From contig ML996690.1 of assembly GCA_010356995.1 (NCBI GenBank), positions 141,101-205,100 of the forward strand: 64,000 nt of DNA, given 5' to 3'. This document shows, piece by piece, positions 9,822-37,727 of the stretch (position 1 is the first letter of the stretch; every line of letters starts with the position of its first letter). Position numbers and translations under genes: made by a program. Origin of the DNA: Trichodelitschia bisporula (Eukaryota). Below the pieces are notes generated by a model. The model was not told where the DNA came from, did not search any database, and saw nothing but the letters and a program-made list of their open reading frames with translations.

Positions 9822-10668
9822 ATGGCAGCCCGCATGCAGCAAGGTGGCAGACCTGGCGGCTCGCGCTTCGCACAGTTCAAGCTTGTACTTCTCGGTATGT
9901 GATATTATTGCCAGCGATTTGACATACACTAACCACGGTGCAGGTGAATCGGCAGTCGGCAAGGTGAGAAATGGCGACGTTTGCTCATATCGCTAGCTAA
10001 CAGAGAGACAGAGCTCACTAGTATTGCGTTTCGTAAAAGTAAGACACCCCCTCCACACTCTATCCCGCATCGCTAACCTCCAGGACCAATTCGACGACTA
10101 CCGAGAATCAACAATCGGCGCCGCCTTCCTCACCCAGACCATCGCCCTCGACGAATCCACCACAGTCAAGTTCGAAATCTGGGACACCGCCGGGCAGGAA
10201 CGCTACAAGTCGCTTGCACCCATGTACTACCGCAACGCCAACTGCGCCGTCGTCGTCTACGACATCACACAGGCCGTACGTGTCCCTATCTCTTCTCCGC
10301 CCCACTAACCCCCCCAGTCCTCCCTCGACAAAGCCAAGGCATGGGTGAAAGAGCTCCAGCGCCAGGCAAACGAGAACATCATCATCGCCCTCGCAGGCAA
10401 CAAGCTCGACCTCGTAACGGAATCGCCCGACAAGCGCGCCATCACGACCGCCGACGCCGAGCAGTACGCAAAGGAGGCCGGGCTGCTCTTCTTCGAGACC
10501 TCAGCCAAGACAGCGGAAAACGTCCGCGAGCTCTTCACAGCCATTGCGAAGAAACTACCTCTCGACCAGGCGGGACCGCGGAGTATGCGCGCCCAGGCAG
10601 CGCGTCCGGGCGTCGACCTGCGGCCCGAGTCACATGCCACGCAGGGAGCGGCGGGGTGCAACTGCTAA
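9822..10668 (+). CDS. Rab5-family GTPase (Ypt52/RabB-like), 5 exons
   Basis: Exons 9822-9894, 9944-9963, 10012-10038, 10084-10275 and 10318-10668 splice to give [51 protein letters not shown] and a C-terminal CNC prenylation motif. Confidence 0.96.
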
Positions 10669-11034
10669 ACTAAGCGGGTACCGCTTTGTCCAGTCCTTTG
10701 ACGCAGGCCTTGTTCGGCCGCAGGTCCGCGACGCGTATGTCCTTCGACGCATGTCCATATGCCTCCGCGTAGTTTCTTGAGATCAGGCCGGTGTTTTGTA
10801 AGCCCGATTTATGTCTCATTAGGTGCTCTTGCGCGCGCGCTTGTTTTCGGCGGTGTTGGTTGGCGTGGGACTGCTACTTAAGACACAATTCCTTAATAGG
10901 CACATGAAGATTCCGGTCGTGCGAGTGTTTTTTCTGGATGTCAGAGTCTAGAGACTGAGTAGGGTGAGGAGATTGTCAATCAATTGATCCGTGAAACGCC
11001 GTGGATGCTTAAGTTACATGCCTGTTTACCGTGC

Positions 11035-11633
11035 CTACTTCCCCCCCCAAAGCCCCTTCACCGAATCCATTATCCCCCCCTTCTTCTCGTCCCCCTTCTC
11101 CTCCAGCTGTGCCGCCTTCCCCTCCACCGCCCTCTCAACCGCCTCCACCACCCCCGTCCCCCCCCTCTCCTCCCTCCTCGCCCGTCTCCTCGCCCGCTCC
11201 GCCTTATCCTCCTCATCCCTCGCCTCCAGCTCCTGCAGCCACTTCTCCCTCCTCTCCCTCGCCACCCTCTCCTTCTCCGCTCCCTCAACCTCCTTCCTCG
11301 CTTCCCTATCCCGACTCCAATACGCACTCCCAACCACCAACGCAAACAGCGTAAAACCCTGCGCGTAAATCCTCCGCCTGAACATGATATTAGCACGCGC
11401 GTGGTCGTTAACGCGCATCGCGCGCGAGGCGCCGATGAGCGCGGCCACGGTCGCGAGACAACCGAGTGGGACTAAAGGTTCTTGTTTCAGGCGTCGGAGG
11501 AGTTTTTGCGTGGGGGATTCGGAGTAGAAGTCGCTGCGGTTGTCAGTAGAGGTATCGGATGGGGAAGGGAAGAATGGGGGGAAGCCTACGTGTCGCCGTC
11601 GAAGGACGAGGGTAGGGGGTTGTCGCCTGACAT
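11035..11633 (-). CDS. RCF1: Respiratory supercomplex factor 1 (HIG1 domain)
   Basis: MSGDNPLPSSFDGD, then an intron, then KLLRRLKQEPLVPLG...MFRRRIYAQGFTL, followed by a charged coiled coil (KWLQELEARDEED). Confidence 0.92.
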
Positions 11634-12239
11634 CGCGAGTAGAGGCTGGTGGAGCGTTGGTGGTGTTGGTGGAGGCGAGAATGTGTAGGCCGGTATGAAG
11701 ACGGGATCGTGAGAAACGGTTTACGGGTCACAGTTGGGTGGAACAGGTGGAGTGTGGGGAGCGCGAGGTGTGCCGCGGGGATGACGATGTGATGCGCTTT
11801 GGGCGAAAAGCGTGGCGGGTGGCGGTTTTTTTGGCAAACATGGTCACGTGAAAGGCTGGTTGGGGAAGGTGGGGATGACATTTTAGGAGGGGAGAGATAG
11901 ACTTTTTGTCACTCGAGCTACACTTTTATGTCCTTGGGTTGGATTGACAGGTAAAGGGCTTGCTTACGGGCACATAACCAAAGACTGCGTTCTGGACGAG
12001 CTTCAAGGGACTCACTCCCAGCGCAGCGAACTTTGCCATGAAAGACTTCAATTCATATATCATTCATGATGGCACATCATAATATTGAAACTTAGCTACA
12101 ACTATGAAAAAGATCAGGGCCTTGCTGTAAACAACCTTACTGAAGAGCAGACCAGTCATGTAGTACCCTTCAAAGCAGCGAAGCCAGATAAAGAGCGTGT
12201 ATTCATCCGGATACACAACTTGCAAAGGATCCGGAGCGG

Positions 12240-12247
12240 CATATAAG
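12240..12247 (+). promoter_or_regulatory. Putative TATA box upstream of the double-hairpin locus
   Basis: CATATAAG about 130-150 bp upstream of the first repeat unit, with no protein gene downstream on the + strand. Confidence 0.3.
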
Positions 12248-12374
12248 TTTCGGTAGGTCTCCCATCAGTACACGGCCCGCAAGGCCACCGTGAATGCCAT
12301 TGTAGTCCTCGATGCATTCAAGGACGGCTTGTCGAATGAGTTTCGTCTCCAGCTCCAGCAAGGAACGAGTGTAC

Positions 12375-13050
12375 AACGCCAAACGGATATGCGAGGAGGG
12401 AAGAAGGAGCTTCCGGTGTCTGGATCAAGCAGAAGCGTCGGGAGCGCAGAGAGATCCTCTCTGTCTTATATTTCTCGGAGCAGAGCACATCTACGTCCAC
12501 GAGTTGCTGCGCAGGAAATGGTACATGAAGGACGAGGTGCGTAGCACAGCGCCGAGCTCCCTGCTATATGCCTCGTCTTTCAAGTACCACTTCCCGTAGA
12601 GAGACCAGTGGACGTAGTTGTGCTGTGACTGTTCATTGATATATAAGACAGAGGGGCAGTTGCCCCGCACCGTCCTGGCTTGTTGTTGTCGACGCAAAGA
12701 TATGAATGTGAGAAGGTAAAAGGAGCTCTCGGTGCGTTGACCACGTAGAAGCGTCGGCAGTGTGGGGATATCCTCCCTATCTCATATTTTTTAGAGCGGA
12801 GCACAACTCCGTCCACGAGATGTTACGTCTCAAGTGGTATTTCAAAGACAAGATATAGTACGGAGCCGGGCAGTACAGCCCCGTACTATATCTCTTATCT
12901 CCCAAATACCACTTGAAGCGGAAACATCGCGTGGACGTGGTTGTACTGTTCTGCTCCGAGAATAAGACAGAGAGGGTAACCTTAGCTGCCCCGCACCGTC
13001 TTGACTCCGCTTGCCGTTAACGTCCCATGTCAAAGAATGAGGGAGGAAGG
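12375..13050. repeat. Tandem duplication of a ~316-326 bp unit, each copy a long imperfect inverted repeat
   Basis: 12399-12539 aligns ungapped to 12715-12855 at 101/141 identity (hand count). TGCCCCGCACCGTC recurs at 12661 and 12987. Hairpin 1 arms are about 12456-12546 and 12562-12656; hairpin 2 arms are about 12772-12866 and 12878-12975. Confidence 0.9.
12456..12975 (+). ncRNA. Candidate hairpin-RNA / milRNA precursor (two ~200-nt stem-loops)
   Basis: Two stems of about 90 bp with 11-15 nt loops, compensatory substitutions between the copies, several G-U pairs on the + strand, and no credible ORF. Transcription is inferred, not shown. Confidence 0.45.
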
Positions 13051-13792
13051 ATGCTTGAAGACGGGAATGGAGAAATTGAGTAATGTCTTTGAGTCGCAGT
13101 GGTGATGATGAGTTGTCGCGTTGAGAGGTTAGGTTGTGGGATGAAGTCAAGAGACAAATTCCAATCAGAAGAGAATAACCGCAACTCCCCGACATGAAGC
13201 CATCCGAACTCGGCCTTGGCCTGAGAGCTATCGAGTCCGGCTTCCATCAACATCTAGAACTAGGATCTGGTTCGAGAACGCTTCGATGAGGTTTCCTGTT
13301 ACATGTTCTACCACAGTACATAGATGCAAGACATCAAACGAAACAAACAAGCTTCGATTCCCTGCTACGCCTGCCTCCCAACCCAGGTTATCGCGCCATC
13401 AAGCGCAGCGGAACGCCTATCAAGATTGCAGCAGATGGTGGCGTCGGTGCTGTGTGACGGTATCTTCAGCCGCAGCCCGATTCTGCAGGTCCTGAACGTC
13501 ATGTCATCTGTCAAGGACAGCAGCCGCGCTTATATCGACATTTCTGAAAGAACTAAGACACGCGTCTCAGACCACAATCCCCCAAACCTCCAGCTCTCAG
13601 TCATCACCACTACGCCATTGCGTCAAAAGGCGGCTCACATCACACATGCACCACACGAAATGCGATTAAGTACTACCCACTGACCCTCGCACCCTCCTCA
13701 AACAGCCCTGCACGACCGTAAAAACAGTAATCCGTAAAACAGAATCCCCATCTAGAAGGCAGAACAGTGATCCGTCAAAGCAGAATCCCGAA

Positions 13793-14510
13793 CTAGATCA
13801 TGGCAACCACAGCACCGAGACCCAGCAACGCCGCCAGAGCCTCCCCACCGACAGTCCGGCCCGCTCCGCTCGACGGCACCGTCGCCACGGTGGCACGCGT
13901 GGTGCTCGGAGTAGCAGTGCGCGACGCGCTTGAGCTCTCGCTCGCAGACGACGAGCTCGCGCTGGCACTTGCACTGGAACTAGCGCTGGCGCTCGCGCTC
14001 TTGGACGACTCAGACGCGGAAGCGCTGCTGCTCGCCGACGCACTGTCCGTAGACGCCGACGACGCAGTCTTAGTACCAGTCACAGCGGAACTCAAGGGGC
14101 CCGACGTGCCGGAGACCGTGAACTGAGGCGTGTAGTTCACATTGCCCTTGTTCGAATCGTCGATGATTTCGATGGCGTAGGTGGTGCCGGAGGGCAGATC
14201 GGAGGGGGGCGTCCAGCTGTAGGTGCCGCTGTTTTGGACGGAGGCTAGGGGTTGCGGTTAGTTTGTTTATGTTTATGTTTATGTGTTTGGATTTTTGTTT
14301 TCGCCGCTTACCCGCGATGCTGGTGCCGGGGTTCAGGTTGCCCGCGTCGCCCCAGCGCAGCTGCAGCGACACGGTGCCCGACGTCGTCGGCTGCCAGGTG
14401 ATGGTGGTGGGCTGGCCGGCGACGAGGGCGCCTGCGACGGGGACGAGCGGGTTATCGAGCGCGGCGGCGAGGGCCGCGAAGGCAGAGATGACGATGGCGG
14501 TGAACTTCAT
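13793..14510 (-). CDS. GPI-anchored Ser/Thr-rich cell-wall protein with Kre9/Knh1-like N-terminal domain
   Basis: Signal peptide MKFTAIVISAFAALAAA. Domain motifs AGQPTTITW, NSGTYSWTPP and NYTPQFTV. Ser/Ala-rich stalk and hydrophobic GPI-type C-terminus. Intron 14245-14311. Confidence 0.88.
14262..14288. repeat. (GTTTAT)n microsatellite in intron
   Basis: TTTGTTTATGTTTATGTTTATGTGTTT inside the intron of the GPI-protein gene. Confidence 0.7.
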
Positions 14511-15443
14511 GTTGTATGTAGAGTATCTAAAGAGTGACGTAGAGTTAGACTCTGAATGCTAAAGAGCGACGACGGTGAGATGCGAGATGAGGGCGATTGC
14601 GCGAGGAGGGAACACACTGCGTGCTGTCAAGAATGTTTTTGAGTCCGTACCTTTGACCCCTTGGGCTAGTGGCGATCGCTCCGCGCCGGCCTATTGCGCT
14701 AGGCTCTGGTGAGGGGTCTGAAGCGCGCGAAAGTGTGTTTGCGGAGTCGTGAATGGTGGGGCGTAACGTGGCAGCGCTGGGCAAATCAACGGCACTTAAA
14801 ATCACGATTGAAGAACAATGCGTGGAGTAGAAGTGTCGTTAAAGCTGGACAGACGTTTGCTGCGTAAAGTTCACGATGATGGGATGACGACGGACGGGAG
14901 AGCAGCAACACCCCCCATTTAAATCCCTACCCCGTGCCTCCTTCGTTCCTTCCCTCCACCTTCCAGACCACAAACCTGCTTTGTCCCCCTCAGCGGTGCG
15001 TCCTTCCACTCGGCTCATTCTTCCATATTAACCTCGCGATCCGTGCCCCGGCCACGGGCGCGGCAATCACGAATCGCGCCTGGCGCAGCGGTCGCCCTGA
15101 AAGGCTAATTTCCGTTAGGGGGGCACGAACATCGCGCCATAATCCCGAACCTGTGGCAGCGCTGACGTCGGGTATCACTGGGGAATGGCCCGCGCTTAAG
15201 AATACTATGGCGCGTCTGCCATTCAATTGCAGTAGATCGCTCGGAAGTAGACGCTGCAGGCGCATTACTTGAAGAAAGCCCTTCCCACCCCGCACTTGTT
15301 GACGGGTGGAGCTGTGGAACCGTTGAGCAAGGGGGCGTGAGGAATGACATGTGGCGATATCGACATTCCTGACTACATCATATCCGTCCCAGAGTGACAA
15401 AGACACAACACCAGCAATCCATCATCCCCCGCAATATCCCCGC

Positions 15444-18067
15444 TCAAATCTCAAACGCACCCTGCAGCCTAACATCCAGCACCGACGCCCCCACATAAAC
15501 ATTATAAAGCCCCTGCTGCAGCACCCAATTCTGCAACTTGGGACTCCAGACGCTCAAATCGCGGCGCGTGAGCTCAAAATGAAAGCTACCCGTCTGGCCC
15601 GGCTGCAGCTCGCGCTTGACAAACCCGCGCAGTTGCCGCTTCGGCGCGTTCGGGATTCCGATGTATAGTTGCACGACTTCGGCTGCTGTCACCGCGCCTA
15701 CGTTGCGCACGCGGCAGTCGACGGTTGCGACTCTGTCCCATAGCGCCGCTGGGCCGCCCTCGGCGGTTGGCGACCGTGGTGGCACGAAGGAGTCGTTGAT
15801 GGTGTTGACGACGAAGGAGAGCATGGCTGTTTGGAGGCCTGAGTATTCGAAGCGCGAGTATGTGAGCCCGTAGCCGAATTCGAAGCGCGGCGTTTTGTTG
15901 TGCGTGAGGAAGTGGCGGTAGTCGATGTTGACGCCCTCGGAGAATGTGCCTGCTGGTTAGATGTGATCTGTATGTGGAAGTGTCCTTACTTTGTGGGTAC
16001 AGTGTCATGTTCGTGTTTGGTGGTGGAGTGTCCGGTTGCAGCAGCGGGGAGTAGTCGAAGTCCATTTTGGCTACAGTGTACGGGAGCCGGCCGGATGGAG
16101 ACACCTTGCCGTAGAGTATATCGATGAGTGCACGCCCACTGTCCTGGCCGGGCAAATGTGCATAAATGACCGCCGTGACATTGGGATGACCGATCCAGGC
16201 GTCAACGAGGCGGATGCCAGCGTTGTGGATGACAACGACGGTGTTGTTACACTTCTCCGCGACATTCATGACGAGACGGTCGGACCACCCGTCCGCCAGG
16301 GAAGGCCGGTCGGCACCCTCGAGTGCAAACTCATTGATCATCACGACGCACGCATCCGACGCAGCCTCGACCGCGGGATCCAGCGACTCAAAGTCCCACA
16401 GCAGGGTCGTGCCGTCCTCGTACGCCTTCTGCTGGAAGGCATCATACGGAGCCGAGATGTAAGGCGGGGAGTTAGCCCCGCTGCCGCCGCCACCGATAAG
16501 TGTACCCTTCTTAGCCGCGCCGGGCGGATTCGTGAGGCCGAAGAGCAGGAACAGGCCATCGATAGAGCCTATGCCGCTGGACTGGAGCCCCAGATTCCAT
16601 ATCATGTCATTGGGACCTGAGGGGTTGTTCTTGACCGGGGCGGTAGCGTCATAGCCGAACAATGAAAGCAGTGTCGGAGTCCGCAGCGGGAGGGCCCTTT
16701 TGACGTTCTTAACCAGGACGTGGCCTTCGTACGCGGCTTGCAGAATCGCCTGCTTTGACGCCTGATCACGCGCGTTTATGAAGGGGCGAGGCCGGTTGAA
16801 GGCCTGGTTCATGCCCACGCCTTTTGTGGGATTGTTGGGTGCGTCCATGCCTATGCGGAACCACGAGGCGACGATACTGCTCCATTAGCGCGGTCCAAGA
16901 TTTCTAAGATTACCTACCGTGTCGCCATATCATCCAGCCGCCATTGCGCGAAGCTCCCATTATTAACGGCTTGGACGAGGGCGCCGCCCGTCGGAGTGGT
17001 GATATTAGGAAGCATCACATTCATCACCATGTCCAGGCCTGCGCTGGCACTGGCAAGTCGCGAGTGCTCTGCGCCCCAGTCCGACACGACGAATCCCTGA
17101 AACCCGAGCTCAAGCTTGAGCAGCCCATTTAGCATCTTACTATTCTGGCAGCCGTATGAGTTGTTCACGCGGTTGTACGAGCACATGACGCTCCCGACGC
17201 CCGCGCGGACGGCATCCTGGAATGGCCAGAGATACAACTCATGCATCGTTTTGTCGTCGATGTTGGACGACACCGACTGCTTCCCGCTCATCACAAAGTC
17301 GAGCTGACTGGGGTTACGGTCCGTCTCTTGCTCGTTGCCGATGAAGTGCTTGACGCAGGCAATTACGGACCGCTGGAGCCCTCGGATGGTCTCCGCCGCC
17401 ATCGCGCCAGAAAGATACGCTTAAGGGTCAGCAACCGACATTTGGAGAGTCATAATGCTCACGGTCCGCGCCGAAGCCCTCCCAATTCCGTCCTCCGCGT
17501 GCAACCCGGCCCAGAGGCCCAACAACCGGCCCAAGAGCCACATTAACTGCGCCGTCAGCAGATCTTCGCACACCTCAGCCGAACACCCACCTCCTTTGCG
17601 CCGAAACTCAGCGCCCATGTACCCACCAATCTCTTTTGCCAGCGGTGCATTCCACGACGCGCCTATATGGATTCCCGCCGGAAACGCGCTCACGCCGTCC
17701 ACACCGCGTACGCCGGCCGGCCCGTCGTGCAAACACAGTCCGGGGAATCCAACAGACTCAACACCACCGCTGTTACCGGCGCAGCTATTGGGATCGGCTA
17801 CCTGGTTCGTCACATGCTCTTTCTCCTCATTGGTCATGCGTGAGACCATTTCGCGGGCTCTGTTGTATGCGTCGGTCCAATTGCCAATCCCGGCGCCAGA
17901 TGCTGGATTGTTAGCCAAACTCACGCGATCACAAGAGACGTACGGCCGGGATAGACGGGTGGTGAGCGGCCATAGGACCAGAATCGCTCCAGGTCGGCCT
18001 TCGACGCATTTTGCGCCGTGGCTATGCCGGCCAAGGACAGGAGCAGGATATGGACGAGAGCCAGCAT
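15444..18067 (-). CDS. Secreted GH3 beta-glucosidase, multi-exon
   Basis: Signal peptide [18 protein letters not shown], then [45 protein letters not shown], catalytic [31 protein letters not shown] and an FnIII-like C-terminus (EVVQLY...QLRGF). Confidence 0.95.
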
Positions 18068-32546: not shown

Positions 32547-33042
32547 GTTCGGTGCCAAGACCCTAACCTGGGGCCAGCTGCTGGGGTGGGGAAACGTTTA
32601 GCCGCGTCTTGCGGGGGATCATGTGACTATATACAGCGCACGGACGAACGCTCCATACGGTATAAGTTGTTGCTGAGTGTTGAAGAGCAATGGCTGAGCG
32701 AAGAAGTCATGAGCGCCCCACCACCGGCTTTTGCTTAGCTATACGGACAGTTCACCAAGAGGGGCCGCTCATGACTTTTTCGCTCAGCCCTTGGGTCTAA
32801 GTTGCACAAAAGGGCAAATAAATCGTTCCAGTTATCAGCACGATAACCGCTGCCTAAGGCCTATACTATCGACTACTATCCTACACAAACAGACAGCAAA
32901 CAGCCGTCCAAGCCCACCGGAAAGTCGCCAAAGGTATACAAGCTCCAAGAGCATCCGCAAGTGAAACTCCAAAGCATGTCCCGCGCCCATCCGCTGTTCC
33001 TAACTCCGTGTCCAGTTATAAAACGCCGCTGAAAAAACACAA

Positions 33043-37631: not shown

Positions 37632-37727
37632 TGCGTCGGCCGGGAATCGAACCCGGGGCCCGTCGAATCATAACTGAATTGCTTCAGATCATGGCAACGA
37701 CGGATTTTACCACTAAACCACCAACGC
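37632..37727 (-). tRNA. tRNA-Gly(GCC) with 25-nt intron
   Basis: Minus strand reads GCGTTGG TGGTTTAGTGGTAAAATC CGTCG TT GCC A [intron] T CGACG GGCC CCGGGTTCGATTCCCGG CCGACGC A. Acceptor, anticodon and T stems pair, A/B boxes are present, and a T5 Pol III terminator follows. Confidence 0.96.

Follow-up and report, generated by a model that had tools for sequence, protein, structure and literature searches.

A tandem pair of long, diverged hairpins, probably transcribed, in a gap between two fungal genes

The DNA analysed here is a single stretch of 64 kb, to which we refer throughout as the window. It looks fungal, with a tRNA gene that carries an intron, introns of 42-123 nt with GT..AG ends and a GC content of 58%, and it is gene-dense and holds housekeeping genes. 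Within it, an array of two hairpins lies in a gap of ~1.4 kb, with a HIG1/Rcf1-like gene on one side and a Kre9/KNH-like gene on the other. Both genes are on the minus strand, and the initial annotation was correct in describing the array as intergenic. The features of the locus are listed below, where X3 and X4 denote two RNA-type sequencing runs.

11035-11749, minus strand: HIG1/Rcf1-like gene (Pfam HIG_1_N, E 4.1e-20), with an intron at 11534-11589 seen as a CT..AC joint and an RNA contig reaching 11749
12070-13288, strand not given by the contigs: RNA-contig cover over the hairpins (X3 12070-13186, X4 12121-13288)
12390-12705, no strand assigned: tandem unit 1, ~316 bp, made up of a left flank (12390-12455), hairpin 1 and a right flank (12657-12705), 68-72% identical to unit 2
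12456-12656, no strand assigned: hairpin 1, with left arm 12456-12546, a loop of 15 nt at 12547-12561 and right arm 12562-12656
12706-13025, no strand assigned: tandem unit 2, ~320 bp, made up of a left flank, hairpin 2 and a right flank, with a start-to-start spacing of 316-326
~12775-12975, no strand assigned: hairpin 2, with left arm 12775-12866, a loop of 11 nt at 12867-12877 and right arm 12878-12975
13162-14554, minus strand: gene for a Kre9/KNH-like Ser-rich protein (Pfam Kre9_KNH, E 8.8e-12 and 3e-08), with an intron at 14245-14311 and its stop at 13793

The 5' end of the HIG1/Rcf1-like gene lies at or beyond 11749 and the hairpins are upstream of it; the 3' end of the Kre9/KNH-like gene abuts the RNA contig that covers the hairpins. 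On the far side of the Kre9-like gene, contigs of both X3 and X4 carry a joint that skips 123 nt at 14996-15118, with GT..AG on the plus strand, a GTGCGT donor and a CTAAT branch-like motif ahead of TAG. The genes on either side, Kre9-like and GH3 beta-glucosidase, are both on the minus strand, and the joint suggests a spliced plus-strand transcript that runs between them or antisense to them. The intron-containing tRNA gene is at 37632-37727 on the minus strand (Rfam tRNA, 47.5 bits), its anticodon not resolved by ARAGORN.

The two units stand head to tail. A repeat search recovered a direct repeat of 141 nt, free of gaps, between 12396-12536 and 12712-12852 (family D1), at 72% identity and a spacing of 316, together with further blocks in shifted register (D2, D3, D5 and D6) at spacings of 319-326, and BLASTN aligned unit 1 with unit 2 at 68% over 307-308 nt. 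The duplication of a ~320-bp unit that the initial annotation had reported, with 72% identity over 141 nt, was recovered at every coordinate. Homology between the units extends outside the hairpins, with 43 of 66 positions identical in the left flank and 30 of 41 in the right, which indicates that a single local tandem duplication, and not two separate insertions, gave rise to the pair. Support for a partial third unit after 13025 is weak: its possible start, at ~13039-13056, gave a score that was reached by 2 of 500 shuffles against unit 1 and by 161 of 500 against unit 2.

Each unit folds back on itself. In hairpin 1, two blocks find their exact reverse complements in the opposite arm, CTCTGTCTTATAT (12459-12471) in 12641-12653 and CTACGTCCAC (12491-12500) in 12608-12617, and the arms 12481-12546 and 12562-12627 are separated by 15 nt (inverted repeat I1). 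In hairpin 2, the pairing is distributed over three inverted repeats: 12800-12824 with 12923-12947 (84% complementary, I5), 12823-12857 with 12889-12923 (77%, I3), and 12851-12866 with 12878-12893 (94%, with 11 nt between them, I10). All pairings and loops of both hairpins given in the initial annotation were verified in the sequence and by the repeat search. The resulting foldbacks are each ~200 nt long, with 76-83 predicted pairs and without secondary stems. Hairpin 1 forms 81 pairs on the plus strand (8 of them G-U) and 76 on the minus strand (4 G-U), and hairpin 2 forms 81 (7 G-U) and 83 (12 G-U), respectively.

Folding of both strands, which had been proposed earlier as a check, predicted stable hairpins on plus and minus alike (z -10.4 to -14.7). 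The 231-nt RNA of hairpin 1 reached -124.3 kcal/mol on the plus strand (z -10.4) and -116.7 kcal/mol on the minus strand (z -11.6), and that of hairpin 2 reached -110.6 kcal/mol (z -12.2) and -123.0 kcal/mol (z -14.7); none of 200 dinucleotide shuffles matched any of these four folds. Among 912 segments of 210 nt tiled over the 64 kb, 12461-12670 gave the most stable plus-strand fold, with -117.5 kcal/mol at 52% GC against a scan mean of -63.2 (sd 16.3), and those of the ten top folds listed that lie outside the hairpin locus all have a GC content of 67-72%. Folding energy and wobble counts gave no consistent choice of strand for a hairpin RNA.

Two further observations concern pairing in and beyond the array. 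The outer left arm of hairpin 1 (12456-12506) and the outer right arm of hairpin 2 (12925-12975) are complementary to each other at 73% over 51 nt, with a 16-nt core at 94% (inverted repeats I2 and I9), and hairpin bases can therefore pair across units when the whole 1.2-kb RNA is folded. The only other clean hairpin found by an inverted-repeat search of the whole 64-kb window is an unrelated intergenic one at 32688-32793, between a kinesin-like gene on the minus strand and an ORF at 32858; it has 32-nt arms that are 91% complementary, a 42-nt loop and an RNA fold of -65.6 kcal/mol (z -6.7).

To compare the four arms, we aligned the two left arms with the reverse complements of the two right arms and counted site patterns over the 98 ungapped columns. 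Forty-three columns are invariant, 36 carry a change private to one arm (7-11 per arm), 10 show other patterns and 9 are informative about grouping. If an inverted repeat had arisen first, had then been duplicated in tandem and had afterwards drifted neutrally, the grouping of left against right arms should win, and on a star tree all three groupings should be equal. Instead, eight of the nine informative columns group the arms of the same hairpin, one groups left against right and none groups them crosswise (binomial p ~0.001; a fraction of 0.0004-0.0017 of neutral star-tree simulations reached 8). This excess of 8:1:0 indicates that the arms of each hairpin co-evolved. Consistently, in an RNAalifold consensus of the two units, both partners have changed while pairing is kept in 11 of 72 pairs.

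The co-changes have a location and a direction. All eight fall in the apical half of the hairpins (columns 57-99 of alignment A2), five are transitions, for which a route leads through G-U, and wherever G/C in one hairpin corresponds to A/T in the other, which happens at six sites, the G/C is in hairpin 1. As judged from the alignment, this direction and clustering would suit selection for stability no better than GC-biased repair or conversion close to the loop, and compensatory selection on an RNA stem would account equally well for the 8:1:0 excess. Other measures of the arms are less suggestive of a selected RNA. The G-U pairs total 15 on the plus strand and 16 on the minus strand, with the two hairpins leaning in opposite ways (8/4 in hairpin 1, 7/12 in hairpin 2); identity between the units is 0.67 and 0.60 in the arms and 0.65 and 0.73 in the flanks; and strict complementarity of the arms within a hairpin is 73.5% and 77%, which is no higher than the 73-77% identity of arms across hairpins in pairwise global alignments. 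The symmetry of the wobbles, the like conservation of arms and flanks and the modest complementarity would thus weigh against a selected RNA.

RNA-type contigs cover the array. The sequencing runs considered were four, from two studies, with none on record as RNA. X3 and X4 come from one sample in one study, their RNA label is a guess, and their contigs give neither strand nor expression level. Contigs of both runs carry GT..AG or CT..AC joints in the Rab-like, Rcf1-like and Kre9-like genes, which indicates that X3 and X4 contain spliced RNA. Over the hairpins, the contigs of both runs are colinear with the DNA, with no differences, no gaps and no joint, and each bridges both hairpins. Contig cover is absent at 11809-12009 in X3 and X4 and at 10804-11004 in X4; we did not count a stretch without cover as evidence, nor did we take the contig depths of 25.1 and 63.3 as expression levels. 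An unspliced RNA of ~1.1-1.2 kb probably runs across both hairpins, with carry-over of DNA as the other possible source of these contigs. Such an RNA could be minus-strand read-through from the Kre9-like gene, whose X3 contig (13162-14554) overlaps the X3 hairpin contig at 13162-13186, or it could be a separate transcript on either strand. The RNA contig of the Kre9-like gene ends at 13162 in X3 and at 13361 in the X4 contig listed, a difference that could reflect alternative 3' ends or merely assembly breaks.

We looked for further copies of the units in several collections. BLASTN of both units at word size 7 returned no second copy within the 64-kb window; matches outside the locus were at chance level (best E 0.20), and no target-like sequence was found in the window. 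Two DNA read sets from this organism were compared at a likeness of at least 90%, and 1 of 167,132 records (X1) and 3 of 120,004 records (X2) fell on 10000-16000. The third X2 record is a 54-nt piece of low depth at 11114-11165, and the others are the locus itself. These few records indicate that there is no family of near-identical copies, a result that covers likeness of at least 90%. A pattern matching all four arms, with a chance expectation of 0 in the window, matched no stretch in a collection of metagenome contigs. A scan with the protein of the Rcf1-like exon 2 gave 597 matching stretches, none of which was confirmed as a relative.

The marks of a mobile element were likewise sought. 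None of 23 long ORFs in the window matched a transposase family in Pfam. Hairpin 1 begins with CCTCTCTG and ends with CAGAGGGG between GAGAT and CAGTT, and hairpin 2 begins with CCTCCCTA and ends with CAGAGAGG between GATAT and GTAAC; neither hairpin is flanked by a direct repeat in the sequence or in the repeat list. The initial annotation had seen no transposase and no target-site duplication and had judged the locus unlike a typical MITE, and its view holds for all three points, the last in the sense that neither the two read sets nor BLASTN of the window contained a multi-copy element at a likeness of at least 90%.

Coding potential, known RNA families and repeat-induced point mutation (RIP) were considered as well. 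Indels between the units measure 6, 1, 3, 2 and 8 nt and are not consistently multiples of three, and the open frames through the four arms, as translated, are not the same frame; the units are therefore not coding, and we rejected that reading. None of three ORFs at the locus, 12845-13195 (minus), 12312-12596 (plus) and 13324-13680 (plus), belongs to a Pfam family, and the 117-aa ORF, the longest that starts with ATG, had no match among 1.84 billion representative proteins. At gathering scores, Rfam returned a single match in the whole window, a tRNA. A permissive Rfam scan of 11900-13400 brought up, far below threshold, the miRNA-precursor families MIR6457 (33.9 bits, gathering score 140) and mir-90 (19.9 bits, gathering score 68), both of which we dismissed as generic hairpin likeness. 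RIP was also rejected: 23 of the 36 private changes are transitions, and changes of G/C to A/T number 12 against 15 of A/T to G/C, which does not match the RIP spectrum.

How the array should be read depends on how these lines of evidence are weighed. The initial annotation had proposed a polycistronic hairpin-RNA gene, and part of this proposal stands: the structure is real, and contigs in two of two RNA-type runs span both hairpins as a precursor would. The expected marks of a functional stem are those that fall short, with G-U pairs unbiased between strands and arms no better kept than the flanks. In its full form, the proposal is that two paralogous long hairpins sit on a single non-coding transcript and that Dicer would process them into small RNAs that Argonaute would use to silence a target in trans; the gene would be of the long-hpRNA/endo-siRNA type rather than a short milRNA. 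The colinear, unspliced contig in both runs of that one sample, folds that are extremely stable on either strand, the eight co-changes against one and none, with the 11 of 72 double-changed RNAalifold pairs, and a single-copy, non-coding locus devoid of transposon features all speak for it, as does a precedent in Drosophila, where tandem hpRNAs arise from a common transcript in the hp-CG4068 cluster (PMC10317233). The even wobble counts (15 vs 16), arms that are no better conserved than the flanks, stems that are 73-77% Watson-Crick and a window that holds no target-like sequence speak against it; in addition, the well-supported fungal mi/milRNA hairpins described in a review are short, with an inter-duplex distance of <20 nt (PMC9757828). 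On balance we regard a hairpin-RNA gene as possible and rather unlikely. The more specific claim, that a filamentous fungus here naturally carries a long hpRNA gene of the fly type, its stems kept by compensatory evolution and its candidate Dicer-dependent endo-siRNAs directed against an unlinked target, strikes us as distinctly doubtful.

Two other readings dispense with an RNA function. The array might be the relic of a foldback or MITE-like element: a single insertion between the two genes, followed by a tandem duplication that took in some flanking DNA, would have left a pair of copies that is now immobile and decaying. Its palindromic fold over the whole length, its size of ~200 bp and its intergenic position would suit such an origin, the hairpin ends CCTCTCTGTC... 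and ...GACAGAGGGG can be read as terminal inverted repeats, and the read-set comparison is bounded at a likeness of at least 90%, so that more diverged copies elsewhere in the genome are possible. We nonetheless find it improbable: the window holds no second copy and the two DNA read sets hold none at that likeness, no direct repeat surrounds either hairpin, none of the 23 long ORFs is a transposase, the pairing extends right up to a loop of 11-15 nt, the four-arm pattern matches nothing in the metagenome contig collection, and the homologous flanks outside the hairpins mark the copies as a local duplication. Alternatively, the four arms could be an array of alternately oriented binding sites, and thus cis-regulatory DNA upstream of the HIG1/Rcf1-like gene, with the hairpin potential as a side effect and with CGTCCAC, TGGTA and CTCTGTCTTAT as the shared blocks. 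The array does lie upstream of the Rcf1-like RNA contig, ~650-1300 bp from its 5' end, CGTCCAC is invariant in four of four arms as are 43 of the 98 columns overall, and conservation from one unit to the other includes blocks in the flanks, for example TGCCCCGCACCGTC. By a rough estimate, however, with 44% of the columns invariant, 5-7 such columns in a row lie within what chance would produce, and the hairpin-wise co-changes are left unexplained; we give a regulatory array very little credence.

The reading that we prefer, tentatively and at somewhat short of an even chance, is that the array arose locally as a quasi-palindromic, single-copy segment, was duplicated in tandem and is passively transcribed, being neither a mobile element nor a protein gene. 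On this reading, the arms of each hairpin would have been kept alike at the DNA level, intermittently and mainly near the loop, by intrastrand template switching at the quasi-palindrome or by gene conversion from arm to arm. Template switching is a known process at quasi-palindromes, and it may have corrected arms of ~100 bp in this fungus. Ordinary mutation would meanwhile erode the stems, and the locus would slowly decay. The RNA would be a by-product, arising either as an intergenic transcript at a low level or as minus-strand read-through from the Kre9-like gene beyond its 3' end. Provided that the RNA exists and that the fungus possesses Dicer, the two imperfect ~80-bp stems are plausible Dicer substrates that would probably yield some small RNAs, as incidental products rather than a selected regulator.

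Several features of the array favour this decay of a local quasi-palindrome. The 36 private changes over 98 arm columns and the arm complementarity of 73.5% and 77% would be expected of eroding stems, and the tandem duplication, the single copy, the wobbles without strand bias, the lack of extra conservation in the arms and the absence of coding potential point the same way. Against it count the 8:1:0 co-changes and the RNA-contig cover, which makes a hairpin RNA probable, as well as the size of the palindromes for which gene conversion is documented, all of them kilobases long, and it is not the commonest outcome for a neutral duplicate that has diverged by ~30% to fold so well. In all, the structure is real, single-copy and probably transcribed, with a statistically clear co-evolution of the arms and several signs of neutral decay, and it is not yet a discovery.

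The array can be set beside four kinds of known system. MITEs and foldback elements are alike in size, in their palindromic fold and in their intergenic site. The locus differs from them in being single-copy at a likeness of at least 90%, in having no target-site duplication and no transposase nearby, and in the co-duplication of its flanks.

Fungal milRNA loci resemble the array in being intergenic, RNA-covered hairpins without secondary stems (PMC9757828). According to the same review, they are short and are defined by strand-specific small-RNA reads, namely small RNAs of 19-25 nt of which >80% come from the hairpin strand and which include a dominant species; of 1727 loci reported, fewer than half passed basic standards, and the natural occurrence of long hpRNAs in fungi is described there as still needing exploration (PMC9757828). 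The present foldbacks, known by their structure, are not short hairpins of this kind: each spans ~200 nt with stems of ~80 pairs (76-83), although they too lack secondary stems. As far as these sources represent it, the fungal literature describes mainly short milRNA hairpins, and tandem long-hpRNA loci are documented in Drosophila.

The likeness to the Drosophila hpRNAs, and to hp-CG4068 in particular, is closer (PMC10317233). Common to both are long inverted repeats, extended imperfect duplexes, tandem copies, the absence of coding potential and fast divergence, and tandem hpRNAs of the fly can lie on one transcript, as the contigs suggest for the array (PMC10317233). A long inverted repeat with an extended duplex, as in long hpRNAs, is what we found here, and it probably lies within one transcript, since one and the same contig takes in all four arms. 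The differences are that the locus has 2 copies where the fly has 9-20, that erosion of the stems has gone further here (73-77% Watson-Crick) and that the host is a fungus; moreover, what defines an hpRNA in the fly is its Dcr-2-dependent siRNAs and the target gene to which it is homologous, and the array is likened to this class by its structure (PMC10317233). We therefore treat the Drosophila class as the closest working analogue and claim no membership in it. If the array were a true hpRNA locus, it would offer a clean test of fly-like endogenous long-hpRNA genes in fungi, and a test case for the birth of such loci by local inverted and tandem duplication.

Gene conversion from arm to arm, which the preferred reading of a decaying quasi-palindrome invokes as one of its two routes, is documented for the large palindromes of sex chromosomes, which are kilobases long (PMC3723533, PMC8981503). 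The arms of the array resemble these in sharing derived states (8:1:0) and in the direction towards G/C in hairpin 1. Those palindromes are kilobases in length with an arm identity of >99%, whereas the arms here measure ~100 bp at 73-77% (PMC3723533, PMC8981503), so any homogenisation of such short, diverged arms would have been local, and old or rare. Should the array prove to be a decaying quasi-palindrome only, it would serve as a warning that processes acting on the DNA can produce two-copy "covariation" and a very low folding energy in a locus whose RNA has no function.
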